A stretch of 64,000 nucleotides of DNA from Clostridiales bacterium. Lineage in GTDB: Bacteria > Bacillota > Clostridia > Christensenellales > UBA1242. The stretch's first letter is position 1; each line of letters starts with the position of its first letter. Location: assembly GCA_015055815.1 (NCBI GenBank), contig SVHM01000003.1, forward strand, positions 53,271-117,270, in the 5' to 3' direction. Under the pieces are notes generated by a model. That model did no database searches. It worked only from the letters and a program-made list of their open reading frames with translations, and was not told the origin of the DNA. A program made the position numbers and the translations under genes. Positions 42,339 to 59,924 of the stretch are shown here, one piece after another.

Positions 42339-42620
42339 ATTTTTCTCCTTTCGTGATTTAATCTAATTATAAATTTTTTGCTTTTTGTTGTCAACACAAT
42401 CGTGAAATTTATTTTTCTTTCAAAAGTTTTTTATTGTCTTTTTATCGTAATATTTAAAAATTCCGACTATTTTTGAACTTTTATGATTGAAATACATTTA
42501 AATTAGACAATCTATTAATATATAAAAATATTAATATATATGCTAAATTAGTTTTTTATTTTCGACAAAATGTGTTAAAATTATCTAGAACTAATAAAAA
42601 AATTACATAGGTGAATGAAG

Positions 42621-45600
42621 ATGAAAAAAGTAAAAACGTTATTAATGAGTTTATTGATCTTGACGGCTACGGCATTTGTTTCGGCATGTTCTTGTAGCTC
42701 ATCAGGAGACCCTAATGCTCCAGTAGTTCCTGAAAAGGAGATTACTATTTCTTGTGAAGAATATACTGGTAGCAACGTAAATGTTATTTACGACCCAGTT
42801 AGTAAGGAGTTGGATATTAAGTGTAATAGTGGCGATACCCTTTACATTCAGTATCTTCTTTCTCCAGAAGATGCAACAACTACTACAGTTAATTGGGATG
42901 TAAGTGATACTTCAGTTATTTCTTGCGATACATATACTTATTCGAAGACTATTAGTGAAAAGGTAGAATTTGTAGCTGGTCAAAAAGGTTCTGCTACTAT
43001 TACTTTTTCTACAGCTTCTAATAAGACAGCTGTTGCACATGTTGAAGTAGCTGCAAAGATTGCTAATCTTCCTTCATTTTCAAAAATAGATGTTGAAGAT
43101 ATCTCTTATAATTCAACAAACGGTAGACTTACTTGGAAAGAGCCTTCAACAATGATTACTGCACTTGGTGAAGTAAAAGATATTACTGAAGAAGCAAGAG
43201 CGGGACTTCTTCACTATGAAGTAACTATTTTGAATTTGGAAGACAACTCTACAAGCAAAATAAACGTTGGTGCAGGAATTAGATATGTAGACAACTTTGT
43301 AAAAGGTGCTAGATATGCCGTTTCTGTAAAACCTATTGGTAATAGATATACTGCTAATGATGGTGAAAACTCTGACGACTTTAAATTCTGTCAGTTGGAA
43401 GCAGTAAGTGAATTGGCTGTTGTAAATGGTGCAGTTTCATTTACTACATCTAAACATTCTTCAGAACACCGTATTTTCCCCGATTATGACCCACAAAAAT
43501 CTAATAATATTTACGAAAGCAGACATATTGAAGCGGGTGTAAAATATTCAAACTTTAATTATACAAACTTCAAAAACTTCAACGGAAGTGTATATAATAT
43601 TGCTGTTCAATCATTCCCTGCATATTATGATGCTAGTTTAAACTATGGAAAGATTTTAAATAGTGGCGTTGAAGAAGAAGGAATGAGATGTTATCCTAGT
43701 AATGTAAGCGAAGTTAAAAGAATACTTAAACTAGTAGAGCCAGAACTAAGTATCACAAACTTACAAGGTGTTGTTGATATTAAGTCGGATAATGGAACTT
43801 TTTCAACTTCATCAATTGCAACACAACATTCAGTTTTGAATATCGATAGCGGAAAGGAAGAAGGCTCACTTAGTGGACTAGGTGTTGAATACCATATAAT
43901 TGTCAGGAAGACTTCTTCAGATAATAGTGGTGAAATAGTTTATTCTTCTGCGGTTAATCTTGATACAAAGACATTGCATTTAAATAACCTTTGGAGTAAA
44001 GCAACAAAAAATTCTTATCAATTTACAATATTTGTTCAAAAAATGGGTGACCAAGATAAAACTATCCCAAGCACATCATCACAATATAAGATAAATGTTC
44101 CAGTATTAAATGATGAGAGTTGGACAATTGATGGAAGTATTTTGAGAGTTCCTTGTACAACAAATTATGCACAATTAGAATTGTATCTAAAAAATACAGC
44201 TGATAATTCAATTTCTATTGTTAAACAAACAAAACCTTCAGATACTGCTGATGTAACATACGATTTAAGTGCTATGGGAATAAGACCTGGTAATTATAAA
44301 TTATATGGTAAATATGTTGGCTCAAACCAAAATAGCGGAAGTATTACAAGTGACGTGTTCTCTTATGGTGAAAATACAGTTCTTTACTTCCCAAAATCAA
44401 TTGATACATTTACTAAAAAATCAAATGGCGATTTCTCAATAACAGTTCCTACTGTAACAAATGAACATGGTGATGAAGTTTATGCAATTGATGACAATGC
44501 ATTAATTGAATTGCGTTTAACTTCAGGTACGGACACAAAATTAAATGTAATCTTATATAATGGTGACGATACAACCGATTATAGCTCATTTATTGGCTCA
44601 GATGGAATTTCAACAACTGTTATTTATCCATACACAAGAGCGTATACAACTGTGGGCGTTGATAAAGTTTACGAAAATAAGATAACATTCAATTTCTTTG
44701 ATATGTTGAAACACGTTTATAATAATGACAATGTTGCTGTTAATAGTTTCTTTGCAGAAGCAGATGGCGGATATAAAGAATTTAAATATTCATTCTCTGT
44801 AAAGGGTTATAGTAGTGATGCAAAAGTAGTGGGTATTAATAGTGCTTATACACCAGAACAAACACTTGTAAGACTTGGAATGCCAAACGCAGTAACTATT
44901 GAAAATGATGAACTTACATTCGAAGCTATCCCTAATGCTACTTATTATCCAATTGAAGTAACAGTTGGAAGTAAGGTGTATACAGGTACAATTGTTCCAA
45001 AATATAAACCAGGAACAGAAAACAAAATTATCGCAAAACCATTGTCTGATATTTCTGTAAAAGATGGCGATGGAGAAAGTCAACTTCTTAGTGAAGTACT
45101 TGGTAATTTGAGTGTTGATAGAGTAAATATTAAATTTAGGTCTCAAGGTAATTTCTCAAATACTGCTCTATGGTTAGATGGTGGTACAAACTCAATTACT
45201 TATGATGCAAAGTATATCACTTCAAGCTTAAGTAGTGTATCAACAAGTATGACATTAGACGGTGTGTTTACATGGTCAACACCAACAACTCTTACGGGTG
45301 AATATGTTGCACCACAAGACCCTGATGATAATGGCGGTGATGAAGGTGCAGAAACTCAAGATGAAGAAGAAAGTGATCCGCCAGCAACAACTCCAAATAT
45401 AGTTATCCTAGAAACAAACGTAAAATATAAAGTATTTGTGAACAAAGGCGACACTAATATTCATACTAAGACTTTAATTCCAGTAATCGTTTCAATTGAT
45501 AGTGAAGGCAAAGCAAGTGATTATGTAATTAATGATGCTGATAAACTTGAAATTTTAAAGACTTTACAAGATGGTCAATGTGCACTTCTTCCAAAAGGTG

Positions 45601-48600
45601 CATTTGGTAATAATACTGGTGCAGATATGTTATTTGCAAACTTGTATACTTGGATAAAAGGAAATACAAATGTACTTAATGTGGTAGTAAAAGAAGTTAA
45701 TTCAAATAAGTTTACTGCTACTGGTACAAACCCTTATTATGTTTCAACTCTACAATCGGTAATTATTACAAAAACTACCGTTGGAGATGAAAACAAAATT
45801 GTATGGAACGCAGTTGCTGATGCTAGTGGATATGATATTTTTGTAGGAGATACTTTCCAAAATAGCACAACCGATACTAGCTTAAATGTTTCAACATATG
45901 CAAGTTCTGTAGGTACATATTTGATAACTGTAAAAGCAAAAGCTGACAATACAGGAAGTGATGTTGGTAAATTAAGTACAAAACCATTTGTTATGTATGG
46001 TGAAGATGGCGAAGACAATATTGCAATTATCAGAGTTGTTAGCGAAAAAATAAAAGTTACTGCAAATGATGACTATATAGAATGGAATAATATTTGCAGT
46101 CAAGGTACTAAATATACAGTAAAAATTGGAAGTAAAATCATTTATATCGGCTCTGTAAATAAAGATGGAATAGCTACTCCATGTGCTACAGAAGGAGAAA
46201 GACAATTAGTAACAACAACAGGTCTTATTAGACTTGATTTGAGTAGTTATGTAAACGATTTAGTTGTTGGTTATGATAATGTTTCAGTATCTGGTACAAC
46301 AACTAAAGAAGGTAAGACTACAGTAGTAGTTGAGCCAACAATTGATTTTGCAAGTACTGGATATATTTTGAATGGTACAACTTATACTGAAAATAAAGTA
46401 AGAAAGTTAAATGCACCAACGGTAGACCCATCATCAGTTACCGATAGTGGTAGATTAAAAGTAACAGTAGATGATGATACTGAAAACTTGTATATTGAAG
46501 TAAATGGAAACGATATTTCTGGATTGTTCTCTATTGAAAAAAGTGGAAGTGTAAGATATATAACATTTGAAACAGATATTGATGGCTCAATGACAATTTC
46601 TATTAAGGCTATTAAGAAAGGTACACTTTCAAGTGATGCGCTTGTCCTTGAAGGTATCAATGATATTGGAAGCGCTAGTATCAATGTTACTTTAGGTGAT
46701 GGTGAGACATTGGCTGTTATTGTTGATGGTGGAATATTAACTGAAGGATATACATTAACAGCAGTTACCCAAGACCCAGAAAATCCAGTAGATTATACAC
46801 ATACATTAACATTTGAAGAAGGTGTTTTGGCAGTTGCAACTAGCTTGGAAATTCAAGCAGTTAATAGTTCAGACCCAACTCATCCTACTACTTTAAAATC
46901 TTATCATGGTGTTACAAAATTAAGCACTGTTGAAGATTTCGAAAGAGTAATTAAAGATGATACTCCATGGTTTGAGTGGAGTGCGGTGACAGGTGTTACA
47001 TCTTACGAGATTGAAGCTTGGAATGTTGTAAGAGAGCCAGTCGAAGATGACACAGAAAATGACGAAAACACCGAAGAAGGTGGCGGAGAAGGTTCTGGAG
47101 AAAACGGAAATGGTGAAGGAAACGGAGGTACTGCTTCAATAACTGAAGAAACTGAACCTGGTAATGAAGGTGAAAGCGGAAGTGGTGAAGAAGAACTTCC
47201 AGAGTTGCCACAAACAGAAAAAGAAGAAAGAAAAACTATAACATTAAACGTAAGTGACGTTGGCTCAGCTAAGTTTAAATATGAAAACGGCAAATACTAC
47301 TATGCTTTTGATGAAGAAGAATTAGGGGTAAGTGCTGGAAGCGGTGATTATAAATTTAGAATTAAACCAACAACAACAACAAATTATTATTTGAATGGTA
47401 GTTATTCAAGTGCTAATCAAATAACAAAACTTAATAATGTAGTTACAGTTTCATATAAAGATGGTATGATTTCAGTATCTGGCTATGAAGCAAACGGAAC
47501 TGAAACTCCAGTAAAAATTAAATATACTGTAAGCCCATACAAAGTAGTTGAAAAATCTGTTACAACTGGCAGTGGTGAAGATGCTGTTACAACTACCACA
47601 AATGAAGTAGAATACGATACAGCAAATATCAAGTCTGATGTAGTTGATTATGCAGATTTAGTTACGCTTGATTTAATGAAATTAAATAATTTATTTACAT
47701 TACCAACTTATGATTATTATTCATTCGAAGTTCAAATAGTATTTATTGGAGATGGCGAAAGTAGTATTAATTCAAATATTTGTATTCCAACAGAAAATGA
47801 ATTAAATCTTAATGGTTATCCAGTAAGTAGATTGGGTGTTACATCTTTATCTACTGTTAATGGTGTAGTTGCTATTAAAGATATTGCAGATGCAACATCT
47901 TATACATTAGAAATTAATGGTGTAGAAGTTGATGTCCCAGTAACTGCAGGAACAAAATCTACAGAATGGACTTCAAGTGTTACTGGTATGACTGCTTACA
48001 CAGATTATGCATTCAATACTAATACTAAATATACTTTAAGAGTAAGAGCTCATGGTGACGTACTCTCTGGTGCTTGGTCAGAACCATTTGATGTTTACAA
48101 ACTTGAAGCCCCTATAGGTTATGACGAAAAAGGTATTTACATTTATGAAGATGCTGGTATTCCATATGTTACATGGAAAGATGGTAATGCTTATGGTACC
48201 GATTATAAATATAAAATACTATATACTCAAAGTGATGACGAAGTAACATTTACTCCTGTTGAGAATATTAAAGCTATTACAACTTCAAAAGGCTCAATAG
48301 CTCATCCACTAAGCACTAATATTGCAACTGGTGTATACTATTTGTTATTTAGAACAAATGGAACAACAAGCGGAACAAATACCGTTGGTTTCTTAAATAG
48401 TGAATATGTAAATGGAACTAAAGTTAATTACATTTCGGAAACTAGTAGCCTTGCTATTAGTAATGGCGAACTTACTTGGAAAGGTGTTGACGGGGCTAGA
48501 TACTATAAGGTAACTATTGAAGGTTGCGAGCCAATTATTACAAGTGATACAAGACTTTCTGTTTTAGATTTCCCAGATATTACTGGAACAAAAACTATTA

Positions 48601-51600
48601 CAGTAAATTCAATTGTAAGCCCAGCAACTGCTATAATTTCTACTTATACAGTAGATGAAGAAGAAGCTCCTAATACAATGAAAGTTTATAGACCAAAAGC
48701 TCCTAGTGATGTTAAAGTTTTAAATGGTGAATTGAGTTGGACGGTAAGTCTATCTGACGTTGTAGAATTCGCTCTTGCCAATCCATCAGTTCTTAATCCA
48801 TCAACAGGTGGCGGAAATGAAGAAAATGGTGGTGAACAACAAGGCGCAAGTATCATGGCAGATACTTCAGATAACAATGTTACACTTATTGATTACATAG
48901 TAAATGTAGTTAATGGAAATAACAATTCTACTGCTGATGAAGACTTTAAATCATCAATTTCACACCTTATCAACGTAACATTAAAACTTACTGATAGAAC
49001 TATTGAAGTTGTTGCAGATAGGGCGGAAGTTATTGATAGTTCGGGAACTCCAGTGAAGATTACCGAAGTATCTGATGCTCTTGAATTACTAGCATTATTA
49101 GGAAATGGAAAAATTAGATATTACTATAATGTTGTATCTGAAAATATCAATCCACATCTGCCATCAGCTAATTCACAAATTCAAGAAGAAGGTGACGACT
49201 TGGGCGGAGACACAGGTGATGGTAGTGATACTGACACAGGTGATGGAAGCGATAGTGATAGTACACAAGAAGAAGTAATCGAATTTAAGTCGGGACACTA
49301 CAAAGTTCAAATAAGTGCTCGTGGTAATTCATTTATTAAAGGAAAAGACACTACAACTCCAGATGAAGGAACTGTTGAAACTTCTTCTGTTAATAATTCA
49401 GTTGCAATTTTAAGCAGTAAATTTACAAGTATTATGGAAGTATACAAACCAGTTTCTCCAGTTACTGATACACAAATAAAAGACAACTTAAAATACGATA
49501 TGGATAATGGTATAATTAGTTGGTCACTTGTTAGAAATGGTGTATTGGAAAGCGGTCAAACTGAAGAAGGATATCATACTGAATATGTATTAGAAGTTTA
49601 TAATGATAGTACAAAAGATGGTATAAAAGCTACAATTACTTTGGGTGATGGTAATTCTATCCAACCAACACAAGGCTTAGTTGTAGATAATAACTGGGCA
49701 AAAATACATATTTTAGATGTATTTACAGTAGATAGCTTAAAAAATCTTTCGGGAAATAGTAGTAAAACAATAGTATTCTCTGATACTGAATATAAAGTAA
49801 GAGTATATGCAAAAGGTACAGTTGATAGCGAAACTGCTACTGGTCAATTGTATTTAAATAGTGATAAGAGAGATTTCATTGACTTTATTTCAATTCTTGA
49901 TAAACCTACTGAAATAGAAATGGAATTAAATAATGTTAGATGGGCAATACCTAATACATCTGTATATACTTTAGGAAAAATCTATTCACTTGGAAATAAC
50001 CTAGGAGAAACAGATACAGATGCAACTCAGTGGGCAGATACTTGGACAGATTGGACTGGCCTTACCGAGACAGAACAACAAGAAAAACTTATTTTCCAAA
50101 AAGATTTCCGTACAGATACAAAAGATAGAAGAATTAACGAATATACTTTAACAGATAAAGAATATTATGATGAAGTAGAAAATGTAAACGTTAAATACCC
50201 AGCTGGTAAATATGCATTTACATTCCAAGAAATGGGTAACGAAAAGGGTGTTGTAGATAGCTTAGTTAGTGATTATTATTATTATTACAAACTAGATGCA
50301 ACAGAAAAAGTTGAACTTGTAAAATCGGGTAATTACAAAGGTATGTTTGCATGGAAATCAGTTCCATTTGCTAACGCATATTATGTTCAACTATATCGTG
50401 TAAGTGTAAATGAAAATCCACAAGAAGGCGAAGACGATACAATTACTACTAGAATTTATACAAGAATGACAACACAGTCATTTACACAAGGTGAAGATAC
50501 ATATTACTATTATGATTTGCCAGACTTTAAGTATGATAGCGCTGATAAATTCTTTATAGCAGTTCAAGCATGTAGGGTAAAAAATACTGCAGAAGATCAT
50601 ATAAACACAGATATTTATGTGGAGAATACACCAGCTAATGATAATTCTAAATATTATTTAGAAAGCGGTTGGTTTATGGGTGATACTAAGATTTCAGCAT
50701 CATATGCTAGAATAAACCCAATTGAAGTATTGACAATTGCAAGAAATGGCTCAATTTCTTGGGATAAAGTTGATACTGCAGGTAGTTATAATGTTAAATA
50801 TGGTGACACTAGAGAAGTTACTATAGCAACAACAAATAACCCAAATACAACTATACAAAGTGATGGCGGAAACATATCTATTCAAGTAAAATCTATAGTT
50901 CCTACTGGAAACGAAAATGATTTATTAAATAGTAGATATAGCGATAAGATTAATGTAATCAAATTATACGACCCAGTTCCAAGAATTATTGGAGAAAATG
51001 GCAACCCTTCAGCAAATGATGGTAACTTGACATGGATGTACAATAATCAACCGGGAACAAGTGCAGAGTATTATTCAGAAGTGATAATTGATGGAGATAT
51101 TACAATTAAACGTGATACTGCAATCATTGATGATGAACCTAGAGTATTTGATATCAATTTAGATACATTAACTCTTTACTATTACACCGACCTTGAAAAA
51201 GTATTCGCTCCAAAGGTAGAAGAAGAAATTCCAAGCGTTGAAGAAGACGAAGAAAATACCGAAGAAACAACAAATATCAAAGATTTAATAGAAAGTTATT
51301 CATACGCAGAAGAAATTGAGAAATACCCAGAAGGCAATCATACATTTGATATTTCATACATTGGTGCTTTAGAAAGAGTATCTCTAAATGAAAACACAAC
51401 TTCATCATTCTTCATTTCATCAAATTCAGAGCATTTTGAAGCTATTAAACTTCCTGCTCCAAATGACGTTGCATTTGCTAAACTTGAATTTGGTGGCAAT
51501 ATTGCAAATAGATTAAGTTGGACAAAAGTTCCATACGCTAACGACTATAATATTTATAGAATTGCAGTTACAACAAGTGCTGAACAAGTAACATCTTATA

Positions 51601-53414
51601 CAGTATTATCATTAAAGAATATAAGTACATATTCTGATAGATTTAATACAGATACAGAGAGTGGAAAAGTTTACTTCAACATTGATGGTAATGTTGCAGA
51701 CAATATAAGCATTATTCAAGGTGGAGCTAGCAACTACTTCTTCGTACAAGCAGTTGGTGATACTGATGAATTTAATTCAATTCATTATCTAAATAGCTCA
51801 TACTGTGAGCCAAAAGTTATAGATAGTCCAGTAGCACCTTCAAACATTAAAGTTGCTAATGGTAAAGTAACTTGGGCAGTTAATACTACTAATACATACA
51901 ATGTAGGTGTAGTACTTACATATAAAGTAAATGATGTTGAAACATTAGATGGTTACTGGAATAACACAATTACAAACGTTCCATATTCAAATATCCAAAA
52001 GAGAGTTATCAGTCGTGATGCAAGTACAAATATTGCTACAATTACCGATTATGTATTATTAAAATCAAGCGATACTGAATATAACGGCAAAACTCCTACA
52101 TGGTATAAATTAACCAATATCGCAACATATACATCAATTTCATTATTTACAATTGCTTCAGAAGAAATTGAAATTGCAAACGGTCAAGTAGAAGTAACAG
52201 ACTTTATGTCAGCGGTAGTTTACTACAACGAAAATAACACTCCAAAACAATATGTATTCAGCATGTTTGCAAGTGGTGATGGTACAGTAGAAACTCCATA
52301 CATTATAGGCAAGAGCGAAGATTTAAAGAATATTACTTACTTTACAGAGAGAAACTTCAAACTTGATGTAAATTCAAAAGTTATAGAAGTAAATGCATGG
52401 TCAACAATCATGGGAACATTAACAGGTACTATTGATGGAAATGACCATACTATAAAAGGCTTCAGTGTAAACATTTCTTCAAATTCAGCCGGACAAATAA
52501 TGACAAGCTTTATTGAAAATAACAATGGTACAATCAAAAACTTAACAATTGAAGTTACTGGTAGTGCTTTACTTGGTCAAAATGGTAATATGAATGTATC
52601 TATTGTTGCAAATAACAACATGTCAAACGGTGTAATTGATAACGTAGATGTTGTAGGAAAATCAACATACTTCCTAAGGGGTGAAGATACAGGATATAAT
52701 GTATATATCAACACTCATGGAAACAAAACATATGGTATTGTTGTTGGTGGACTTGTTGTAAATAATGCAGGTACAATTACAAATTCTAATGTTGACCTAG
52801 ATATCTATGCAGTAGGTACAGAAGATTGTGTAATTACTACTGGTGGTATTGCTAATGTTTCTTCAAATGGAACTATTACATCAAGTACATACACTGGTAA
52901 TATTACAAGTAACTATATTGGTGGACTTGTATATTCAGCAACAAATACAACTATTACAGATTGTACAGTTGGTGGTGATGGTACACCATCTCAATTAACA
53001 TCAATTACTCATGATAATGGGGCTTTCCATAAACATTCAATTGTTGGTGGCTTAGTTGGTCAGTATCTATCAACTTCAACAAAGACAATTTCTAATAGTA
53101 ATGTATATGTAAATATCACTCTTGATGTTAAGGCATCTGCTGGAAGATATGAACTAGGTGGCGTAATTGCTGTTATCGATAAAGACTCAAGTGCTAATGT
53201 ACAACTTTCAGGTGTAGAAGTAGAAGTTGCATTCGATAGTGAAATGTCAGGTCTAGCTGAAAGCGTAACAAGTGCTATTTGGAATAATACATTTGCTTAC
53301 TTATTCACTCCATCAAATAGATTTGTAAGTTGCGTTGGATGTACATACAAAAATAACACAACAAGCACATTCAGTATTCAAAATTACATTCCAAGCGGAG
53401 TGTTTGAAAACTAA
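42621..53414 (+). CDS. Giant (~3,600-aa) surface lipoprotein: Big-like N-domain, many FN3-like modules, acidic inserts and a C-terminal GLUG-type beta-helix
   Basis: RBS AGGTGA before ATG 42621; lipobox FVSA-CSC. Recurrent (K/R)L..P ... (L/I)xW..V..A..Y modules. C-terminal SGDGTVETPYII, TIDGNDHTI and GGLV/GGIA/GGLVG motifs. No LPXTG or C-terminal TM. Confidence 0.85.
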   Translation: MKKVKTLLMSLLILTATAFVSACSCSSSGDPNAPVVPEKEITISCEEYTGSNVNVIYDPVSKELDIKCNSGDTLYIQYLLSPEDATTTTVNWDVSDTSVISCDTYTYSKTISEKVEFVAGQKGSATITFSTASNKTAVAHVEVAAKIANLPSFSKIDVEDISYNSTNGRLTWKEPSTMITALGEVKDITEEARAGLLHYEVTILNLEDNSTSKINVGAGIRYVDNFVKGARYAVSVKPIGNRYTANDGENSDDFKFCQLEAVSELAVVNGAVSFTTSKHSSEHRIFPDYDPQKSNNIYESRHIEAGVKYSNFNYTNFKNFNGSVYNIAVQSFPAYYDASLNYGKILNSGVEEEGMRCYPSNVSEVKRILKLVEPELSITNLQGVVDIKSDNGTFSTSSIATQHSVLNIDSGKEEGSLSGLGVEYHIIVRKTSSDNSGEIVYSSAVNLDTKTLHLNNLWSKATKNSYQFTIFVQKMGDQDKTIPSTSSQYKINVPVLNDESWTIDGSILRVPCTTNYAQLELYLKNTADNSISIVKQTKPSDTADVTYDLSAMGIRPGNYKLYGKYVGSNQNSGSITSDVFSYGENTVLYFPKSIDTFTKKSNGDFSITVPTVTNEHGDEVYAIDDNALIELRLTSGTDTKLNVILYNGDDTTDYSSFIGSDGISTTVIYPYTRAYTTVGVDKVYENKITFNFFDMLKHVYNNDNVAVNSFFAEADGGYKEFKYSFSVKGYSSDAKVVGINSAYTPEQTLVRLGMPNAVTIENDELTFEAIPNATYYPIEVTVGSKVYTGTIVPKYKPGTENKIIAKPLSDISVKDGDGESQLLSEVLGNLSVDRVNIKFRSQGNFSNTALWLDGGTNSITYDAKYITSSLSSVSTSMTLDGVFTWSTPTTLTGEYVAPQDPDDNGGDEGAETQDEEESDPPATTPNIVILETNVKYKVFVNKGDTNIHTKTLIPVIVSIDSEGKASDYVINDADKLEILKTLQDGQCALLPKGAFGNNTGADMLFANLYTWIKGNTNVLNVVVKEVNSNKFTATGTNPYYVSTLQSVIITKTTVGDENKIVWNAVADASGYDIFVGDTFQNSTTDTSLNVSTYASSVGTYLITVKAKADNTGSDVGKLSTKPFVMYGEDGEDNIAIIRVVSEKIKVTANDDYIEWNNICSQGTKYTVKIGSKIIYIGSVNKDGIATPCATEGERQLVTTTGLIRLDLSSYVNDLVVGYDNVSVSGTTTKEGKTTVVVEPTIDFASTGYILNGTTYTENKVRKLNAPTVDPSSVTDSGRLKVTVDDDTENLYIEVNGNDISGLFSIEKSGSVRYITFETDIDGSMTISIKAIKKGTLSSDALVLEGINDIGSASINVTLGDGETLAVIVDGGILTEGYTLTAVTQDPENPVDYTHTLTFEEGVLAVATSLEIQAVNSSDPTHPTTLKSYHGVTKLSTVEDFERVIKDDTPWFEWSAVTGVTSYEIEAWNVVREPVEDDTENDENTEEGGGEGSGENGNGEGNGGTASITEETEPGNEGESGSGEEELPELPQTEKEERKTITLNVSDVGSAKFKYENGKYYYAFDEEELGVSAGSGDYKFRIKPTTTTNYYLNGSYSSANQITKLNNVVTVSYKDGMISVSGYEANGTETPVKIKYTVSPYKVVEKSVTTGSGEDAVTTTTNEVEYDTANIKSDVVDYADLVTLDLMKLNNLFTLPTYDYYSFEVQIVFIGDGESSINSNICIPTENELNLNGYPVSRLGVTSLSTVNGVVAIKDIADATSYTLEINGVEVDVPVTAGTKSTEWTSSVTGMTAYTDYAFNTNTKYTLRVRAHGDVLSGAWSEPFDVYKLEAPIGYDEKGIYIYEDAGIPYVTWKDGNAYGTDYKYKILYTQSDDEVTFTPVENIKAITTSKGSIAHPLSTNIATGVYYLLFRTNGTTSGTNTVGFLNSEYVNGTKVNYISETSSLAISNGELTWKGVDGARYYKVTIEGCEPIITSDTRLSVLDFPDITGTKTITVNSIVSPATAIISTYTVDEEEAPNTMKVYRPKAPSDVKVLNGELSWTVSLSDVVEFALANPSVLNPSTGGGNEENGGEQQGASIMADTSDNNVTLIDYIVNVVNGNNNSTADEDFKSSISHLINVTLKLTDRTIEVVADRAEVIDSSGTPVKITEVSDALELLALLGNGKIRYYYNVVSENINPHLPSANSQIQEEGDDLGGDTGDGSDTDTGDGSDSDSTQEEVIEFKSGHYKVQISARGNSFIKGKDTTTPDEGTVETSSVNNSVAILSSKFTSIMEVYKPVSPVTDTQIKDNLKYDMDNGIISWSLVRNGVLESGQTEEGYHTEYVLEVYNDSTKDGIKATITLGDGNSIQPTQGLVVDNNWAKIHILDVFTVDSLKNLSGNSSKTIVFSDTEYKVRVYAKGTVDSETATGQLYLNSDKRDFIDFISILDKPTEIEMELNNVRWAIPNTSVYTLGKIYSLGNNLGETDTDATQWADTWTDWTGLTETEQQEKLIFQKDFRTDTKDRRINEYTLTDKEYYDEVENVNVKYPAGKYAFTFQEMGNEKGVVDSLVSDYYYYYKLDATEKVELVKSGNYKGMFAWKSVPFANAYYVQLYRVSVNENPQEGEDDTITTRIYTRMTTQSFTQGEDTYYYYDLPDFKYDSADKFFIAVQACRVKNTAEDHINTDIYVENTPANDNSKYYLESGWFMGDTKISASYARINPIEVLTIARNGSISWDKVDTAGSYNVKYGDTREVTIATTNNPNTTIQSDGGNISIQVKSIVPTGNENDLLNSRYSDKINVIKLYDPVPRIIGENGNPSANDGNLTWMYNNQPGTSAEYYSEVIIDGDITIKRDTAIIDDEPRVFDINLDTLTLYYYTDLEKVFAPKVEEEIPSVEEDEENTEETTNIKDLIESYSYAEEIEKYPEGNHTFDISYIGALERVSLNENTTSSFFISSNSEHFEAIKLPAPNDVAFAKLEFGGNIANRLSWTKVPYANDYNIYRIAVTTSAEQVTSYTVLSLKNISTYSDRFNTDTESGKVYFNIDGNVADNISIIQGGASNYFFVQAVGDTDEFNSIHYLNSSYCEPKVIDSPVAPSNIKVANGKVTWAVNTTNTYNVGVVLTYKVNDVETLDGYWNNTITNVPYSNIQKRVISRDASTNIATITDYVLLKSSDTEYNGKTPTWYKLTNIATYTSISLFTIASEEIEIANGQVEVTDFMSAVVYYNENNTPKQYVFSMFASGDGTVETPYIIGKSEDLKNITYFTERNFKLDVNSKVIEVNAWSTIMGTLTGTIDGNDHTIKGFSVNISSNSAGQIMTSFIENNNGTIKNLTIEVTGSALLGQNGNMNVSIVANNNMSNGVIDNVDVVGKSTYFLRGEDTGYNVYINTHGNKTYGIVVGGLVVNNAGTITNSNVDLDIYAVGTEDCVITTGGIANVSSNGTITSSTYTGNITSNYIGGLVYSATNTTITDCTVGGDGTPSQLTSITHDNGAFHKHSIVGGLVGQYLSTSTKTISNSNVYVNITLDVKASAGRYELGGVIAVIDKDSSANVQLSGVEVEVAFDSEMSGLAESVTSAIWNNTFAYLFTPSNRFVSCVGCTYKNNTTSTFSIQNYIPSGVFEN

Positions 53415-53425
53415 AATTATTATAT

Positions 53426-53452
53426 CGTTGCATGGGGCTGACCCATGCAACG
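53426..53452. promoter_or_regulatory. Perfect 11-bp hairpin without a U-tract between the giant gene and sipW
   Basis: CGTTGCATGGG-GCTGA-CCCATGCAACG followed by GGATAATA. Confidence 0.55.
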
Positions 53453-53630
53453 GGATAATACATATACGATTTTAAAAAAATGAAAAATGAAAATATCTAA
53501 ATGAAAAATGGAAAAACACTTTTGTTAAATGCTACATTAATTACAAAAAAATAGTGACGGAGAACAAAATATGTGGCTATTTGTAATAATTACACTTTAT
53601 TACATTTTTATGAAATAAAAAGGAAAACTT

Positions 53631-54227
53631 ATGAAATTTTATAGACTAGAGAAAAGAAATCATGTTTTAGAATGGACATTTACTGCACTAAAGGCATTTG
53701 GACTAAGTTTACTTTTCACAGTTGTACTTATGCTTGTTTGCGGGTATAAGTTTATGATTGTAACTTCAGGCTCTATGGAACCTACTTTGCCTGTTGGAAG
53801 TTTGGTAATTGTCACTCCATGTGATTATGATGATTTAGAGTATAGAGACATTGTTACATTTACCGGTGAGTCGGGTGTAAACTTTACCCACAGAATTGTT
53901 GGTAAATCAAATTCAAAAAACCATGATGACCCAATTCTTCCAGGAGAAGAAGGTTTTGATGAAGCATATAGCTGGGTAACACGTGGAGACTATGATGGTG
54001 CAAAAGTAGACTCAGGATATGTAAAAAGCAAAGAAATTGTTGGAAAAATCTACGAAAGTCATTGTTTTACATTCACAGGAACTATTGTTAGATATGTAAG
54101 AAGTAACTTTATGATGATTATTATATTTATGTTTATCTTAGTTGCAGTAGTAGAACTTGTGAATTTCTTAAAAAGACAATTAGAAGAAGATGATGTAGAG
54201 TGTTACGAAACAGATGATGAGGAGTAA
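53631..54227 (+). CDS. sipW: Signal peptidase I, SipW/ER-type (S26B)
   Basis: TM helix, VTSGSMEPTLPVGSLV (Ser), FTHRIV (His instead of Lys), TRGD...D and a C-terminal TM helix. Confidence 0.92.
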   Translation: MKFYRLEKRNHVLEWTFTALKAFGLSLLFTVVLMLVCGYKFMIVTSGSMEPTLPVGSLVIVTPCDYDDLEYRDIVTFTGESGVNFTHRIVGKSNSKNHDDPILPGEEGFDEAYSWVTRGDYDGAKVDSGYVKSKEIVGKIYESHCFTFTGTIVRYVRSNFMMIIIFMFILVAVVELVNFLKRQLEEDDVECYETDDEE

Positions 54228-54230
54228 GAA

Positions 54231-54998
54231 ATGACAAAAGTGAAGAATAGATATCAAATATCTTTTCTAATAGTACTAATTTCAGTAGTACTAAGCTTTT
54301 GTGTATTTATCGGCACTATTACAGCATGGCTTATGGTCGATTATGAAGAACATTCAGAAGGCTTGGAAATAGGCACAGTTCAAGTTAAACTTTATAATGG
54401 CGGAACGGAAGTTCAAGGTACAAAAGTTGGAAATAATGGTGAAGTTGTTTCAACTCATGCTACAATGACAATTCCAACAAATTCCACAAGTGCCAGCCAA
54501 ATGTTAATATCAATGAGAAATACAGGAACAATCGATTGTATAGTGAGAGTACAGTTTAACGTATATTATCTAGAAAATGACGGTAATAGAGTTACTGTAT
54601 TTATGTCGGGAGCTTCATCAATTGACCCAAGTTATCCGGCAATATCTATGACAACTACCGATTGGGTAAGAGATTTGCTTCCTGGAGTTTCTGCGGGAGA
54701 ATTGTATTATAATAAACAATTAAAACCATATTATGCTTGGTCTTTAGATAGTAATAATGACGGTCAAAATGAAACATCTCCACAAGCAAGCAATCAAGTG
54801 GCTATTATTAGCGGTATTAATATAGGAAGTATAACAGAACAATTATATATAGATATTACAGTTGATGCAGTTGCATTTAGCGGAAATATTTATAAAAAAG
54901 CTCAAGCTGGAGAAAGTGTTCCGGTTGAAGCATATCCGTTTGGAACCCCCGATACTTTGCCAGAAGATTGGGATGCATGGAAAGCGAAAAAGGAGTAG
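54231..54998 (+). CDS. SipW-class substrate, TasA/BsaA-like fibre subunit 1
   Basis: Basic N-region, hydrophobic helix, GTITA-WL cleavage-type motif, RNTGTIDCIVRV, LYYNKQL and ITVDAVA. Confidence 0.75.
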   Translation: MTKVKNRYQISFLIVLISVVLSFCVFIGTITAWLMVDYEEHSEGLEIGTVQVKLYNGGTEVQGTKVGNNGEVVSTHATMTIPTNSTSASQMLISMRNTGTIDCIVRVQFNVYYLENDGNRVTVFMSGASSIDPSYPAISMTTTDWVRDLLPGVSAGELYYNKQLKPYYAWSLDSNNDGQNETSPQASNQVAIISGINIGSITEQLYIDITVDAVAFSGNIYKKAQAGESVPVEAYPFGTPDTLPEDWDAWKAKKE

Positions 54999-55001
54999 TA
55001 T

Positions 55002-55625
55002 ATGTTGAATAATAAGCAAAAGAAGAAAGGAAGGTGGTATCACGTAGCTGGTATACTTCTTTTGTGCTTTGCTATTATTTATTTGACGTATACTTCAACT
55101 TATTCTTGGTTTAGAGATAAATCAACAACAAGTAATAAGCCCGATATAGCAATAATCGGTACTATTGCACTTGATGTAACAACCAACTTTAATTTTGAAA
55201 ACTTAGCTTTAGCTCCTGATACAACATATACAGGAACTGGCTTTGAAACTAAAGTCAAAACAGCACCAGACCACGATATAAATGGTGCATTTGTAAGAAT
55301 TAAATTTACAACAAATAGAAGTGAGATATCACTACACTTTAATAATCAACTGACAACTTCAACTGATGTTGCAACAGCTGAAAATAAATGGTTTTATAAT
55401 GAAACCGATAATTATTACTATTATATAGGTAGAATTTACGATACCGATGTTCAGTTTAATGATGGGTACTCGGTAGACAATACTTTACATAATAAAAAAG
55501 CTGGTGCAAAAGTAGAAATGTCATTCATAGTAGAAGGACTTCAATGGCAATATGATGCATATTTGGCAGAATGGCAAACTGCTCCAGCAGTATTTAAATC
55601 ATATGCTCAATCGGTACAAATTTAA
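55002..55625 (+). CDS. SipW-class substrate, TasA/BsaA-like fibre subunit 2
   Basis: STYS-WFRD....N....G.I.L, AFVRIKF, W...DNYYYYIG and IVEGLQ. Confidence 0.8.
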   Translation: MLNNKQKKKGRWYHVAGILLLCFAIIYLTYTSTYSWFRDKSTTSNKPDIAIIGTIALDVTTNFNFENLALAPDTTYTGTGFETKVKTAPDHDINGAFVRIKFTTNRSEISLHFNNQLTTSTDVATAENKWFYNETDNYYYYIGRIYDTDVQFNDGYSVDNTLHNKKAGAKVEMSFIVEGLQWQYDAYLAEWQTAPAVFKSYAQSVQI

Positions 55626-55652
55626 GTGTAAGAAAAATATTTAGGAGATATT

Positions 55653-56399
55653 ATGGCGACTCAAAGTGAAATGAAAAAGCGAATACAAGTACAAAATATG
55701 ATAATTGTAGCCCTTGCTATAATCATATTTGTTTTGGTTGCAGTATCTGGTACGGCTGCTTGGTATATAAGAAGTAAATCAGATACCACTGAAATCAGAC
55801 TTTCTGACCCAGTAAATATTGAAATCACCGAAAACGGCTCAATAACGACAGATATTCTGAAAGAATTTAGCGTGAACGTTTACCCGGGAGATACAATAGG
55901 ACTAAATCTTGGTGTTAAGATGGGTAAAGCGGGTACTCCTAGTTCTCCAGCATATGTAAGAGTAAAATTAGAGATTTTCTTTGAAAATCAAGAAGGCGTT
56001 TATTCTCAACTTGAAGATGTTGCCGATTCAGATAAAGTTAGATACAAAGATACTCCCGATGGAAGTGTTTGGGAAAAAGTAAATTTTGCACAATTTGCAC
56101 AAGCAGAAAATGAAGATATAGAAGATGACTATTGGTTTGTACTTAAAGATTATGATGAATTGGGACACATGACCGCAAGGGTTGCTACCAATCAAGAAGA
56201 TTATTTGTTCTTAGATGGGTTTATTGAACTTGATAAACACAATTTAACAAATAACGAAGCACTATGTAAATTCCATATAAATTATGTAGTTGAAGCAATC
56301 CAGAAAGAAAACGTTCCTGACCCACTAGCAAATCCGGGCTTTGGTCCATGGTGGGATTTCCAACTTGGTGATATTGAAGATATAGAAGGACAAGAATAA
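55653..56399 (+). CDS. SipW-class substrate, TasA/BsaA-like fibre subunit 3
   Basis: SGTAA-WY, VYPGDTI, AYVRVKL and VVEAIQ. Confidence 0.75.
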   Translation: MATQSEMKKRIQVQNMIIVALAIIIFVLVAVSGTAAWYIRSKSDTTEIRLSDPVNIEITENGSITTDILKEFSVNVYPGDTIGLNLGVKMGKAGTPSSPAYVRVKLEIFFENQEGVYSQLEDVADSDKVRYKDTPDGSVWEKVNFAQFAQAENEDIEDDYWFVLKDYDELGHMTARVATNQEDYLFLDGFIELDKHNLTNNEALCKFHINYVVEAIQKENVPDPLANPGFGPWWDFQLGDIEDIEGQE

Positions 56400-56433
56400 T
56401 TTTAAAAAATAATTTTATAAAAAGGGGGGTAAT

Positions 56434-57303
56434 ATGGCTGAACAAGATAATAAAAAAGATAATGTGAATAATGAAAAAAGGCCTAAGCCCCAAAAAATTA
56501 TTAACGTTACAAAGCCAAAACAATCGTCAACTCCACTTAGTCATATTGACGCAACAAAGGTAAGTTCTCATACATTAAGAGAGCAACACGCACTTGAAAA
56601 ATTGAAAAAACAAGTGGGTGGAGTAAAAACAAAAGACAGAAACTCATCTCTTCTAAAAACAATAATAGCAATAGTGCTTGCAATAATACTTTTGGCACTT
56701 GCCGTATTGTTTGTATTAATAATTGGTAGAGATAAACCAACTGAAGAAGATAACTATGATGTTAGAGTAAGTTTGCAGATTGAAAATGACGCAAGTTTAA
56801 GAATTGTAACAGAAAGTGGAAAAGAAAAATTTAAAGATATTGACCCCGGTGATGTTGTTCCCGTAAGTGCATTTGTAAGAAACTCAGATGATTATAGCGG
56901 AGATAATGTTCAAGAAATTGGCGAGTCGTCGGCAATATTTGTTAGATTTAAAGTACAATTTGTACTTAATTATAAAGTCGCTAATGAAAAAATCAAAATC
57001 AAAGTTAGTGATAAATGGTATAGATATAATAAAGATAGTGAATTAGAATTTGGTCAAGAAGGAATACTTGAAGATGATGGATACTATTATTATTTAGGAA
57101 GTCTGTCATTTATGCAAAGGGCAGAACTATTCTCCGAAATAGAATTTGTTGGAGAAGAAATATTCTGTGAAGATGGTGGGCATTATGGTCAGATAAAAGT
57201 ATCTGTTGAAAGTATTCATGCAAGCCTTGATTTAATTGAAGGTGAAAATGCTTGGCCAACAGCCCCAAGAAATTGGATATTGATGCAAAGAAATTATTTT
57301 TAA
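56434..57303 (+). CDS. Paralogue of subunits 1-3 with a long N-terminal tail and TM helix but no AW(F/Y) cleavage motif (putative anchor)
   Basis: ~70-aa charged N-tail and a TM helix, then IDPGDVV, IFVRFKV, DGYYYYLGSL and VSVESIH. Confidence 0.7.
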   Translation: MAEQDNKKDNVNNEKRPKPQKIINVTKPKQSSTPLSHIDATKVSSHTLREQHALEKLKKQVGGVKTKDRNSSLLKTIIAIVLAIILLALAVLFVLIIGRDKPTEEDNYDVRVSLQIENDASLRIVTESGKEKFKDIDPGDVVPVSAFVRNSDDYSGDNVQEIGESSAIFVRFKVQFVLNYKVANEKIKIKVSDKWYRYNKDSELEFGQEGILEDDGYYYYLGSLSFMQRAELFSEIEFVGEEIFCEDGGHYGQIKVSVESIHASLDLIEGENAWPTAPRNWILMQRNYF

Positions 57304-57316
57304 AAAGGAGAAAGCT

Positions 57317-59767
57317 ATGACAAAAATTACCATGAAAAAATTCCTAGCCATTTTTGTTATGGCTTTTTCTTGTTTCTTTACCGGTTGTACATGCGATTTG
57401 CTCAGCCCAACAACTACTCTTTCAGCCCCAGAAATTAAATATTATTCAGATAGTAATGCAATATCATGGAAGACAGTTCCTAATGCTACTATGTATAATA
57501 TTTATTGTGATGACAAAATTATTGCAGTTGTTCATGACGTGTATGAAGAAGATTGTTTGATTTACGATTTAAGCAGTGTGATTAATGACAAAGAAAATCA
57601 TGAGATAAAAGTTACTGCTTCTTCAGATATGAAGTTTGTATCAGATAGCGTTGGAAGTAATATTGTATCACATGTAAATAATTCTGTTGCTGAAATATAT
57701 GATTTAGATGAATATGAATATAGGTTAAATGCAGATGTTGAGTTTAAATTAAAAGGCACTGAAGTTTCGTATGTACCTGTTGAAGGTATAGATAAATATT
57801 ATTTGTTCGCATATACAAATTCAAATGGTCTTAAAATTATCGAGTGTGTAGGTCAAACAATAAGTCTTAAATCTACAAGTTTAATGCTTGATGGAAGTGA
57901 TGATATTGTTGCACTTAGACTTGGGTATAAAGAAGATGATAAATACTATTTCTTATCAAACATAGTATATTATAATAGTGTCAATTATAATGGATATACT
58001 GACAATATCTATATATTTGATGGCAAGATTAATGACCATTATATAGAAAGTTTACAAGAATTAAATAGTGTAGTTTATAATAATTTTATAGCAAGAATAG
58101 AAGAGTATAATATTAAATTTAGTACTGGCATGGAAGAGTTAATAAAAGAAAGCTTCGATGGAAGTACATTAAAAGATAAAGTAGATAATGCTATGTATTA
58201 TTCTCTAACAAACATGTTTGAGACGAGTGAGAATAGGGCAGATAATACTAGTGGGACATTTGCTATTCCGTTAAATGGTGAAAGAGAATATAATATCAAA
58301 ATTGACTATGGTGATGGTGTTTGTAATACAAATATTCTTCCTACAATGTTAAGAGAACAAGCTGACGCAACACCATATTATGAGATGGTAGATTACACAA
58401 TGCGAAGCGTTAAGTATGGAATTGATTATGATAATTTTCCATCTGACAAAAGAGTTTTGCATACACTTATAAATAACTCTGAGCAGTTGTATTGGGCGGT
58501 TGAAAATAAAGTTACGCCAGTCTTTGAAAATACTCAAGATGGCAATAATAGAGCATATGAAATATACAAAGAAGCAAAAAGCGTTCTTAATCAAATTATA
58601 TCAGATGATATGACCGATTATGAAAAAGCCTTAAGTATATTTGATTGGATATGTTTAAATACCGTTTATGACCATAGTGTGTATGAAGGAAATATTACAA
58701 GCCACCCATGTTATTACCTTGAAGGCGTATTTACTACTGGCTATGCAGTTTGTGATGGTTATTCAAAAGCATATAGCCTAATGTGTAATATGTTAGGCAT
58801 TGAATGTATAAGGATTACAGGCGAAGCGGTTACAGATAGTGGCCGTGGTGGTCATGCTTGGAATAAAATTCTTGTTGATACAGATAATAATCTTGAAAAT
58901 GGTAAAGAATGTTATTTAATAGATATTACATGGACAGAAATTCAAGAAAATAGTAGTGAGTATTTAAGTAAATCATACTTTATGATATCGGATAACGAAG
59001 TTGAAAGTACACACTTTCCTTTTGAGCAAAGAGTTGAATTTAAATTGTATCCGTCAACTAAAACATATAACTATTATGGAAGTACTAAATTTAACTATAA
59101 CGATGAAAGTTATGATTTAATAATTTCAAATGATGATGACGTATTGAATTTATTTGGTTACTTACTAGAGAGTGGTATCAAACATTATGAAGTTATAGTC
59201 GATTACGATTATATGGTTCAAGTTTATGAAAGTGCCACATCTAAAAAGTATAATAGTAGAACAGACTACAAAGTGAAAAAGTTTATGAATGGAACAGTTC
59301 AATCGGTAGTTTATTATAATGAACTTTTAGATAATCTTATCGATAAAATGAGTAAGATAAAAAATTCAGATGATATGCCACTTACTTGCCAATCATTTGA
59401 TGTTATAAGAAGTATTGATTTAGTTAAATATGGCGAAGGTAAAGAAGGGCTGGTGTTGCTCTTTGAGCAGTCGTTGCTTATTGATGATAATAATGATGCA
59501 GAAAACATAGTTAACTATTTTAACGAAACAAAAAATTACAACAGATATTTGCTATACATTGACCACAAAATTTTAAGTCCAAAAAGTAGTGATTATTTTA
59601 AAAGTGTCGAGACTTTACTTGGTGAATTGTTTGACCCATTACTAGACGGAAAAGATAACATTACATTTGTATTTCAAGTAGTTGATGCAAGCGTAAAATA
59701 TACTGCTCTTAACTATGCTTGTGTGCTTATATTTGATGTTGTTGAAAAAGTTGTAGAAGTATCGTAA
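57317..59767 (+). CDS. Lipoprotein with an N-terminal FN3-like module and a transglutaminase-like (Cys-His-Asp) domain
   Basis: RBS AAGGAG; lipobox FFTG-CTC. LSAP...ISWKTVPNATMYNI module. DYEKALSIFDWI, VCDGYSKAY, HAWN and IDITW. Confidence 0.88.
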   Translation: MTKITMKKFLAIFVMAFSCFFTGCTCDLLSPTTTLSAPEIKYYSDSNAISWKTVPNATMYNIYCDDKIIAVVHDVYEEDCLIYDLSSVINDKENHEIKVTASSDMKFVSDSVGSNIVSHVNNSVAEIYDLDEYEYRLNADVEFKLKGTEVSYVPVEGIDKYYLFAYTNSNGLKIIECVGQTISLKSTSLMLDGSDDIVALRLGYKEDDKYYFLSNIVYYNSVNYNGYTDNIYIFDGKINDHYIESLQELNSVVYNNFIARIEEYNIKFSTGMEELIKESFDGSTLKDKVDNAMYYSLTNMFETSENRADNTSGTFAIPLNGEREYNIKIDYGDGVCNTNILPTMLREQADATPYYEMVDYTMRSVKYGIDYDNFPSDKRVLHTLINNSEQLYWAVENKVTPVFENTQDGNNRAYEIYKEAKSVLNQIISDDMTDYEKALSIFDWICLNTVYDHSVYEGNITSHPCYYLEGVFTTGYAVCDGYSKAYSLMCNMLGIECIRITGEAVTDSGRGGHAWNKILVDTDNNLENGKECYLIDITWTEIQENSSEYLSKSYFMISDNEVESTHFPFEQRVEFKLYPSTKTYNYYGSTKFNYNDESYDLIISNDDDVLNLFGYLLESGIKHYEVIVDYDYMVQVYESATSKKYNSRTDYKVKKFMNGTVQSVVYYNELLDNLIDKMSKIKNSDDMPLTCQSFDVIRSIDLVKYGEGKEGLVLLFEQSLLIDDNNDAENIVNYFNETKNYNRYLLYIDHKILSPKSSDYFKSVETLLGELFDPLLDGKDNITFVFQVVDASVKYTALNYACVLIFDVVEKVVEVS

Positions 59768-59870
59768 ATTTGATGTTGTATTAATAGAAAACGGTAGTTG
59801 ATGATGCCGATATATGCAACTTTCTGACAATATATTTTACATTGTTGGCAATTTTTAATAGATTGTAGTC

Positions 59871-59910
59871 AAAAAAATAAACCATATGAAAATTATATGG
59901 TTTATTTTTT
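59871..59910. terminator. Bidirectional intrinsic terminator closing the surface locus
   Basis: AAAAAAATAAACCATAT / ATATGGTTTATTTTTTT between convergent genes. Confidence 0.75.
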
Positions 59911-59924
59911 TATTTAAAATTTTA

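Follow-up and report, generated by a model that had tools for sequence, protein, structure and literature searches.

The window analysed here is a 64,000-nucleotide stretch (C4:53271-117270) from the genome of a Clostridiales bacterium, whose assembly is 1.31 Mb long, 98% complete and of ~30% G+C. Seven co-oriented genes on its + strand (42621-59767) form a cassette encoding a giant lipoprotein, a SipW-type signal peptidase, four paralogues resembling the fibre proteins TasA and BsaA (subunits 1-4) and a lipoprotein with a transglutaminase core (hereafter TG). Its most probable product, proposed with moderate rather than high confidence, was judged to be a surface fibre that belongs to the TasA/BsaA superfamily and depends on SipW. 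Several paralogous subunits would compose it, one of which would tie the fibre to the cytoplasmic membrane. The genes are listed below, with product lengths in amino acids (aa).

42621-53414, + strand: giant lipoprotein gene, 3597 aa (3599 aa from a further in-frame ATG at 42615)
53631-54227, + strand: sipW, 198 aa, from the open reading frame (ORF) call and its translation
54231-54998, + strand: subunit 1 gene, TasA/BsaA-like, 255 aa
55002-55625, + strand: subunit 2 gene, TasA/BsaA-like, 207 aa
55653-56399, + strand: subunit 3 gene, TasA/BsaA-like, 248 aa
56434-57303, + strand: subunit 4 gene, TasA/BsaA-like of an anchor type, 289 aa
57317-59767, + strand: TG gene, transglutaminase-core lipoprotein, 816 aa

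From sipW to the TG gene, the intergenic distances are 3, 3, 27, 34 and 13 bp. The gene order was compared in 16 related loci, which represent at least six genera of one GTDB family at 25-55% identity, and was conserved in most of them; 8 loci were counted as complete, 7 as rearranged or cut by a contig end, and one as neither. The series giant-sipW-subunits 1 to 4-TG was complete in L002, L004, L042, L043 and L052, and also in L044-L047 (genera g159 and g152), where two extra TasA-like paralogues between subunits 3 and 4 raise the number to six per cassette. Contig ends interrupt the cassette in L005, L006 and L049, the last of which has sipW inverted, and in L050 it is split by four unrelated genes and accompanied by further paralogues. 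Only subunits 1-3 are left in L051 and only scattered paralogues in L053. The outer flanks vary among the loci. Linkage of the giant and TG genes to sipW, the lack of which would have refuted an earlier sequence-only reading of this DNA, thus persists in relatives, although L048 lacks an adjacent sipW and giant gene.

The product of sipW meets TIGR02228 (archaeal/ER-type signal peptidase I) with 58.9 bits at a cut-off of 51.85. The catalytic Ser48 lies in SGSMEP and His87 in THRIV, and both boxes, the latter as THR(I/V), were invariant in 12 orthologues; the base residue is therefore His, not Lys. The score and the two invariant boxes identify the enzyme as SipW-type, in accordance with the Ser/His-type signal peptidase first proposed. 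The Bacillus SipW equivalog NF046067 was matched at 55.5 bits, below its cut-off of 190, as expected for a distant lineage. The possibility that this SipW is a plain housekeeping signal peptidase was rejected, since a separate LepB-type enzyme is encoded elsewhere in the genome. The protein continues with a second transmembrane helix and an acidic C-terminal tail. The tail (54180-54227, DD(V/I)ECYExDDEE) is kept in the closer relatives (~50% identity) and is gone in more distant genera; that it pairs with the Lys-rich tail of subunit 4 is pure speculation.

The sequences of subunits 1-3 begin with a short signal peptide followed by [TS]-x-[AS]-[WYF], which is kept in their orthologues. Cleavage by SipW was predicted at the following positions.

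Subunit 1, + strand: GTITA32/W33, motif conserved in orthologues
Subunit 2, + strand: TSTYS35/W36, motif conserved in orthologues
Subunit 3, + strand: SGTAA36/W37, motif present in 114/114 homologues

None of these 114 subunit-3 homologues is annotated. The T-x-(A/S)-W class of signal peptide, which had been assigned to three of the subunits, proved to be real and non-random, with 114/114 subunit-3 homologues carrying it as against 0/18 of the subunit-4 homologues from the databases. Further motifs of the subunits are PGD, N-x-G, VR(V/I)K, YYY and VEA(I/V)Q, the last followed by a Trp-containing tail, and, in subunits 1-3, G-T-x-A-W-F-x-D where the signal peptide ends. The motifs originally claimed are present, but they are those of the whole superfamily, as PGD, VR(V/I)K, YYY and VEA(I/V)Q...W were also found in canonical BsaA-like proteins. 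The same applies to the Trp-containing C-termini, which do occur but are a general feature of the superfamily and not special to the cassette. In the last strand, where the subunits have VEA(I/V)Q...W, TasA reads FEATQW.

Each subunit family, consisting of the orthologues from the 16 related loci, was aligned by HHalign to an outside BsaA set of 23 TIGR04090-matching proteins from other Clostridia. Full-length comparison gave probabilities of 98.5-99.4% (E 1e-15 to 3e-21, 167-180 aligned columns), and with the signal or transmembrane regions removed the probabilities were 97.0-98.3% (E 1e-10 to 2e-14). For subunits 1, 2 and 4 the full-length values were 98.9, 99.4 and 98.5%, and those of the mature parts 97.0, 98.3 and 97.5%, respectively. 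A hidden Markov model (HMM) of the outside set, when run against this genome, recovered all four, with E-values of 4e-12 (subunit 3), 1.2e-11 (subunit 1), 1.6e-10 (subunit 2) and 6.8e-5 (subunit 4). Profile-profile comparison thus supports the assignment of all four paralogues to the TasA/BsaA superfamily. Curated models gave a different picture. TIGR04090, with a cut-off of 60, matched subunit 2 at 22.6 bits (E 7e-5) and subunit 4 at 13.7 bits, gave no match to subunits 1 and 3 and matched 0/42 subunit-3 homologues. Neither PF12389 (Peptidase_M73) nor TIGR04088, the model of the SipW-cognate signal peptide, matched at E<=1. The expected kinship with the TasA/BsaA families therefore stood as remote homology, by HHalign and the outside-set HMM, but not at any curated cut-off.

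The AlphaFold2 model of subunit 3, built with 42 homologues, is a confident beta-sandwich with a predicted local distance difference test (pLDDT) score of 81.7, in front of which the post-cleavage segment is of low confidence or disordered (residues 39-55). Among the Foldseek matches of this model, the TasA fibre 8aur ranked third, weakly (E 0.013, template modelling (TM) score 0.34-0.36), beside cohesin and p53 beta-sandwiches. Searches of the PDB by sequence with subunit 2 alone, or with the C-terminus of the giant protein, gave nothing useful.

Subunit 4 is built differently. A Lys-rich cytoplasmic tail (aa 1-76) is followed by a transmembrane helix (~77-99), a linker of ~12 residues (GRDKPTEEDNYD) and the first core strand, VRVSLQIEN; unlike subunits 1-3, it has neither a T-x-A-W site nor a donor-strand segment. 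The motif was absent from all subunit-4 homologues inspected (0/30, comprising 18 from the databases and 12 locus orthologues). These homologues have a tail of 57-169 aa, one truncated entry apart, one transmembrane helix, and only ~10-12 residues between the helix and the first core strand ((I/V)R(V/L)S(M/V).IEN). The tail itself (56434-56664, aa 1-76) is conserved across 20 homologues, with V25, T26, K27, P28, E50 and L54 invariant and the consensus KIIDVTKPK..S.IDASRVSA.TLREQQALEKLKKQVG. Such conservation suggests that the tail may bind an intracellular partner rather than act as a plain tether. When 1.84 billion representatives were searched with a profile of subunit 4, only 89 clusters emerged, of which 53 were at E<=1e-10. 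The long matches almost all combined a long tail with a transmembrane helix, and only the weakest were ordinary signal-peptide forms. The TapA-type nucleator/anchor model TIGR04087 gave no match to subunit 4, and the exposed N-terminal donor strand of TapA has no equivalent in it, its N-terminus being cytoplasmic. These comparisons support the view that subunit 4 is a conserved, uncleavable and membrane-tethered form; the membrane-tethered subunit of the sequence-only reading was accordingly borne out by the absence of the cleavage motif, the conserved tail and the transmembrane helix.

In TasA, the donor strand consists of residues 28-38 of the mature protein, and the groove of a subunit must be filled before its own strand is extended (PMC9674648, PMC10151520). 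A disordered segment like that in the subunit-3 model is reported for BsaA monomers, of which residues 28-38 become the donor strand in multimers (PMC7395162, PMC11580942). By analogy, we infer that the cassette subunits polymerise, and that they do so as a heteropolymer. SipW would cut subunits 1-3 behind the small residue preceding Trp, and the N-terminal strand so freed would, as in TasA, fit into the beta-sandwich groove of the subunit that follows. Subunit 4 could accept a strand but could neither donate one nor be released, and would form the chain end and the membrane anchor. Because it offers a groove but has neither a donor strand nor a cleavage site, it is proposed to be the last, membrane-fixed subunit. 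The anchored end of such a chain would have the opposite polarity to that set by TapA, which donates the first strand.

An alternative is that SipW exports the paralogues as monomers that serve as coat proteins or adhesins, one being bound to the membrane; they would not polymerise with each other and would belong to a co-regulated envelope set. Some members of the family do form no long polymers, since BsaB is reported to form only dimers (PMC11580942), and seven other TasA-like proteins of this genome (264-788 aa, with insertions in the fold) resemble surface proteins more than pilins. Without strand exchange, however, it is hard to explain why the donor-strand region should be kept in subunits 1-3 and specifically lost in subunit 4. 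Four distinct orthologue groups in a fixed order across genera also suggest specialised, non-redundant roles, as in pilus operons. The monomeric alternative was considered improbable.

TG matches PF01841 with 48.6 bits (E 1.1e-12, cut-off 23). The triad Cys479, His513 and Asp536 is invariant in 12 orthologues, and the lipobox, FFTGC in this protein, is present in nearly all orthologues. A transglutaminase-like lipoprotein, as first described, is therefore encoded here. The N-terminal part contains an FN3-like module (WKTVPNATMYNI) with one W..V..A..Y signature, the same as that of the giant protein, and the C-terminal ~280 aa are poorly conserved. A module shared between TG and the giant protein, and internal repeats in the latter, were sought by BLAST without a significant match (best E 0.012-0.034). 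Mycoplasma lipoproteins of the MAG6410 family resemble TG over the catalytic core; against the family model NF045980, TG scored 65.9 bits, below the cut-off of 450, with only the core aligned (aa 406-668).

Proteins of the TG family of similar length were found in 99/301 genomes of the order. Within the family of the host, a strong subunit-3 orthologue was present in 13 genomes, each of which had a strong TG-family match as well (E <= 1e-50; 13/13). A general linkage of the TG family to TasA-like genes was ruled out, as it was seen in 0/20 genomes from other families of the order. The giant gene is missing from two metagenome contigs that are more distant, of which L084 has subunits 1-4, a deaminase gene and TG, and L085 has one BsaA-like gene and then TG. 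Because TG is retained beside TasA-like genes in both, it is tied more tightly to the subunits than to the giant protein. A second, distant TG-family gene (C1:86607-88736, 709 aa, E 3e-14 against the TG profile) has no TasA-like gene nearby.

At the membrane surface, TG would act on the fibre, either cross-linking or cleaving it. Gln-Lys cross-linking of the fibre is a real possibility, though short of an even chance, and proteolytic trimming or release was rated somewhat lower. A more specific proposal is that TG is a LapG-like releasing protease, which would cut the giant adhesin or the anchored fibre from the membrane and would cross-link nothing. The Cys-His-Asp triad of the transglutaminase fold serves proteases as well as transglutaminases, and LapG, a transglutaminase-like cysteine protease, frees the giant adhesin LapA. 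As in LapG/LapA, an enzyme of the papain/transglutaminase fold is here encoded with a giant protein; both products would be lipid-anchored on one face of the membrane, and the two genes are inherited along with the cassette. TG is nevertheless not a member of the LapG family, its Pfam matches at E<=1 being limited to PF01841 and a sub-threshold Ig_RIMBP2. In addition, the tie of TG to the subunits in L084 and L085, where the giant gene is missing, is the tighter one, and no conserved cleavage motif was identified. Release in the manner of LapG thus seems unlikely.

The giant protein has the lipobox FVSAC, and a (G/A)-C-S-C lipobox was found in all 6 complete orthologue N-termini. With the lipoboxes of both the giant protein and TG conserved in orthologues, the lipid anchors that had been claimed for them were upheld. 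The C-terminal beta-helix tip is carried on a long stalk, in which acidic Gly/Ser/Asp/Glu linkers occur along with FN3-like W..V..A..Y signatures. The signature occurs seven times, compared with 0.26 expected from shuffled sequences. No Pfam domain was matched above its cut-off by the giant protein, GLUG (PF07581) included; of the eight pieces searched, a single one matched fn3 (PF00041), at only 14 bits (E 0.06, cut-off 25).

The tip module was delimited as follows.

52284-53246, + strand: C-terminal beta-helix module of the giant protein (~aa 3224-3544), from the alignment of 13 orthologues

It is the best-conserved part of the protein and shows the pattern G.G...PY.I...L.NI ... F.GTIDG.G..I.N ... 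N.GTI.N ... GGI, typical of GLUG-bearing beta-helices. In the AlphaFold2 model of the C-terminus, the mean pLDDT was 68, with values of 70-95 within the helix. The top four Foldseek matches were streptococcal and Gemella IgA1 proteases (7uvl, 7uvk, 6xjb and 6xja; E 2.5e-4 to 6e-4, probability 1.00), at low TM-scores of 0.29-0.35 by query; the L. reuteri SRRP adhesin 5nxk was also among the best matches. The C-terminus is thus predicted to fold as a beta-helix resembling that of GLUG-bearing IgA1 proteases, and it is the distal tip of the protein, because the lipid anchor is at the N-terminus. The label 'FN3/GLUG' given to the giant protein on first inspection was therefore only partly apt: Pfam provides no GLUG and an fn3 match at E 0.06 only, but the excess of W..V..A..Y signatures and the nearness of the predicted fold to GLUG-bearing IgA1 proteases speak for it.

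In 11 of the related loci, sipW is preceded by the gene of an orthologue of 2710-3505 aa, with 24-28% identity that is mostly confined to the last ~450 residues. In the twelfth locus, L050, a cut ORF of 980 aa has a C-terminus that aligns with the tip module. For the cassette itself, RNA folding revealed two A/U-rich hairpins, both of which a scan for consensus terminators had missed.

53418-53460, + strand: hairpin after the giant gene, dG -25.2 kcal/mol, z -6.7, no U-tract
59871-59911, + strand: intrinsic terminator, 19-bp A/U-rich stem and U-run, dG -17.4 kcal/mol, z -6.0

The first hairpin is located directly past the giant stop codon, and 0/200 shuffled sequences were equally stable. It occupies part of the 216-bp spacer between the giant gene and sipW, of which ~170 bp lie beyond it. 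Because of this strong hairpin, the giant gene of this genome is probably a separate or attenuated transcription unit. The hairpin may be an attenuator, or an mRNA processing or stabilising element that determines the balance between giant and fibre transcripts. The second hairpin can work bidirectionally as a terminator, since an A-run lies upstream of its stem. At the other end of the cassette, an AGGTGA box at 42609-42614 makes 42621 a likelier start of the giant gene than 42615, in line with the start initially proposed. The layout given by the sequence-only reading, with seven co-oriented genes, gaps of 3-34 bp from sipW onward and a closing terminator, was correct apart from the strong hairpin after the giant gene, which it had missed.

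The fibre reading would make the giant lipoprotein a co-regulated adhesin that cooperates with the fibre and may contact it. The giant gene could instead be a mere conserved neighbour, encoding an independent adhesin that was inherited in place within one family and stands outside the fibre system. Its separation from sipW by the hairpin and the 216-bp gap is consistent with this, as is the presence of 13 scattered ORFs of at least 1500 aa, which makes giant surface proteins common in this genome; L084 and L048, moreover, keep the subunits and TG while this giant is missing. Yet the linkage holds in 12 loci at 24-28% identity although the outer flanks differ. In three lineages the giant gene also abuts or overlaps sipW, with a gap of 62 bp in L046 and 1 bp in L050 and an overlap in L047, which suggests co-transcription. 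Mere neighbourhood was accordingly rated as rather doubtful, and participation of the giant protein is retained in the proposed system.

The genes flanking the cassette are housekeeping or unrelated and encode seryl-tRNA synthetase, rubrerythrin, desulfoferrodoxin, a deaminase and a DUF2207 protein. Divergent to the giant gene (40266-42338, - strand) is the gene of a 690-aa protein that has a single transmembrane helix, a tail rich in Lys at its N-terminus and a large extracellular portion without a Pfam match. One genome of the same genus (L052) has a homologue in the same position; the other related loci ended too soon for this neighbour to be scored.

Two established modes of pilus assembly were excluded. 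No match to the sortase family PF04203 was found in the 98%-complete genome, which rules out a sortase-assembled pilus, and inspection of the translations by eye showed a C-terminal LPXTG with a hydrophobic stretch and a basic tail in 0/7 cassette products. The N-terminal helices cannot be read as those of type IV pilins, since they lack a prepilin motif and the genome encodes no convincing T2SSE ATPase. As the genome has no sortase, the lipid and transmembrane anchors are proposed to stand in for wall anchoring. Besides SipW and the LepB-type signal peptidase, Lgt and penicillin-binding proteins are encoded.

A number of results weigh against a TasA/BsaA-type fibre as the product of the cassette. 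None of the four subunits (0/4) reached the cut-off of any curated family in Pfam or NCBIfam. The model of subunit 3 had no Foldseek match at E<=0.001, the structural match to TasA was weak (E 0.013, TM-score 0.34), and a sequence search of the PDB with the 42-sequence profile of subunit 3 returned nothing. The hairpin at 53418-53460 disfavours simple co-transcription of the giant gene with the sipW operon here. SipW is not exclusive to the cassette, being shared with seven TasA-like genes elsewhere in the genome, and L048, from the same genus, has subunits 1-4 and TG with neither sipW nor the giant gene adjacent. TG-family genes stood beside TasA-like genes in 0/20 genomes from other families of the order, so that the TG fold alone says nothing about fibres. 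RNA runs containing the locus were searched for and none was found. Runs of DNA that contain it were from faeces and gut metagenomes, goat gut included, and the named homologues come from metagenome-assembled genomes designated 'Christensenellales/Clostridiales bacterium'.

The nearest described system is sipW-bsaA-bsaB-bsaC of C. perfringens, with the BsaA family as TIGR04090 (PMC7395162, PMC11580942). Both operons have a SipW-type peptidase followed by remote TasA paralogues with a G-T-x-A-W/Y-F signal. For the BsaA subunits of C. perfringens, donor-strand exchange has been predicted, as is proposed for those of the cassette, and membrane-anchored oligomers have been reported. Unlike the C. 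perfringens operon, the cassette lacks the von Willebrand A protein (BsaC) and has no two-component or sortase neighbours, and it contains four to six paralogues, including the donor-less transmembrane form, together with the TG and giant lipoproteins. In the survey of 2,172 family members reported in a preprint, frequent neighbours had signal peptidase, fibronectin, LPxTG and sortase domains, and several paralogues per operon were noted as 'suggesting ... heteropolymers' (PMC11580942). The description of the cassette as an undescribed surface-fibre system was therefore overstated, since multi-paralogue BsaA/TasA operons with signal peptidase and fibronectin neighbours, and the idea of a heteropolymer, were already in that preprint. 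Absent from the searched literature are the donor-less transmembrane paralogue as a conserved subfamily, a TG lipoprotein with a constant place in the operon and a giant lipoprotein with a beta-helix tip linked to it; no paper in it joined SipW and a transglutaminase in one operon.

With tapA-sipW-tasA of B. subtilis (PDB 8aur; PMC9674648, PMC10151520), the cassette has in common a dedicated SipW and, as predicted, a beta-sandwich subunit. The donor in B. subtilis is the post-cleavage N-terminal strand of TasA, and one fibre end is set by an accessory protein, TapA. Whereas TapA is wall-associated and the donor of the first strand, subunit 4 is a donor-less integral membrane protein, so that the anchored end would be the acceptor. 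Sequence similarity between the cassette subunits and B. subtilis TasA is undetectable without profiles. Anchor or terminator subunits are well known from other pili, such as PapH of chaperone-usher pili, Mfa2/FimB of the type V pili of Bacteroidota and the basal pilins of sortase pili. Type V pili retain the lipid on their anchor, whereas their remaining subunits undergo cleavage, a division that would recur here between the transmembrane-anchored subunit 4 and the SipW-cleaved subunits 1-3. The logic of a chain-stopping paralogue fixed to the envelope is the same, although the families and enzymes are unrelated and the likeness is one of general knowledge.

Seven further TasA/BsaA-like genes were located outside the window, three on C13 (C13:39170-43205), two on C12 (C12:47000-51390), one on C8 (C8:163328-165694) and one on C4 (C4:152896-153894). 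Their products are of 264-788 aa, most of them 330-790 aa, and several have large insertions within the fold. All carry signals of the GAT(L)A(W/Y)F type, and the single SipW of the genome would thus have about 11 likely substrates. The 13 ORFs of at least 1500 aa, the largest of which encode 10,526, 8,043 and 7,829 aa, together account for about 12% of the genome; examples are C8:16052-47632, C1:25513-49644 and C4:158016-181505. This load of giant ORFs fits an attached or epibiotic lifestyle.

At its fullest, the proposal is of a sortase-independent Gram-positive pilus of the TasA fold, in which the donor-less transmembrane paralogue would set the polarity and its tail might couple to an intracellular partner, TG would lock the subunits covalently, and the giant protein would be displayed by the pilus or cooperate with it. 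This complete form is speculative and was given a low probability. If it were true, locking by TG would join sortase and the autocatalytic Asn-Glu-Lys triad as a third enzymatic way of stabilising pili covalently, and the donor-less paralogue would be a candidate answer to how the membrane holds fibres of the BsaA/TasA type.

The oligomers of C. perfringens BsaA are membrane-bound by an anchor that is unknown (PMC11580942). How TasA/BsaA fibres are attached, and by which end, is unclear beyond Bacillus, and subunit 4, as a member of a small and well-defined subfamily, is a concrete candidate for the anchor. A conserved transglutaminase-fold enzyme encoded beside fibre genes likewise makes enzymatic cross-linking or release of such fibres testable. 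The host family consists of gut Clostridia with ~1-Mb genomes. As ~12% of the DNA of this one is given over to giant surface proteins, and 11 TasA-like proteins are served by one SipW, TasA-like fibres are probably central to the attachment of these uncultured organisms to hosts or partner cells.

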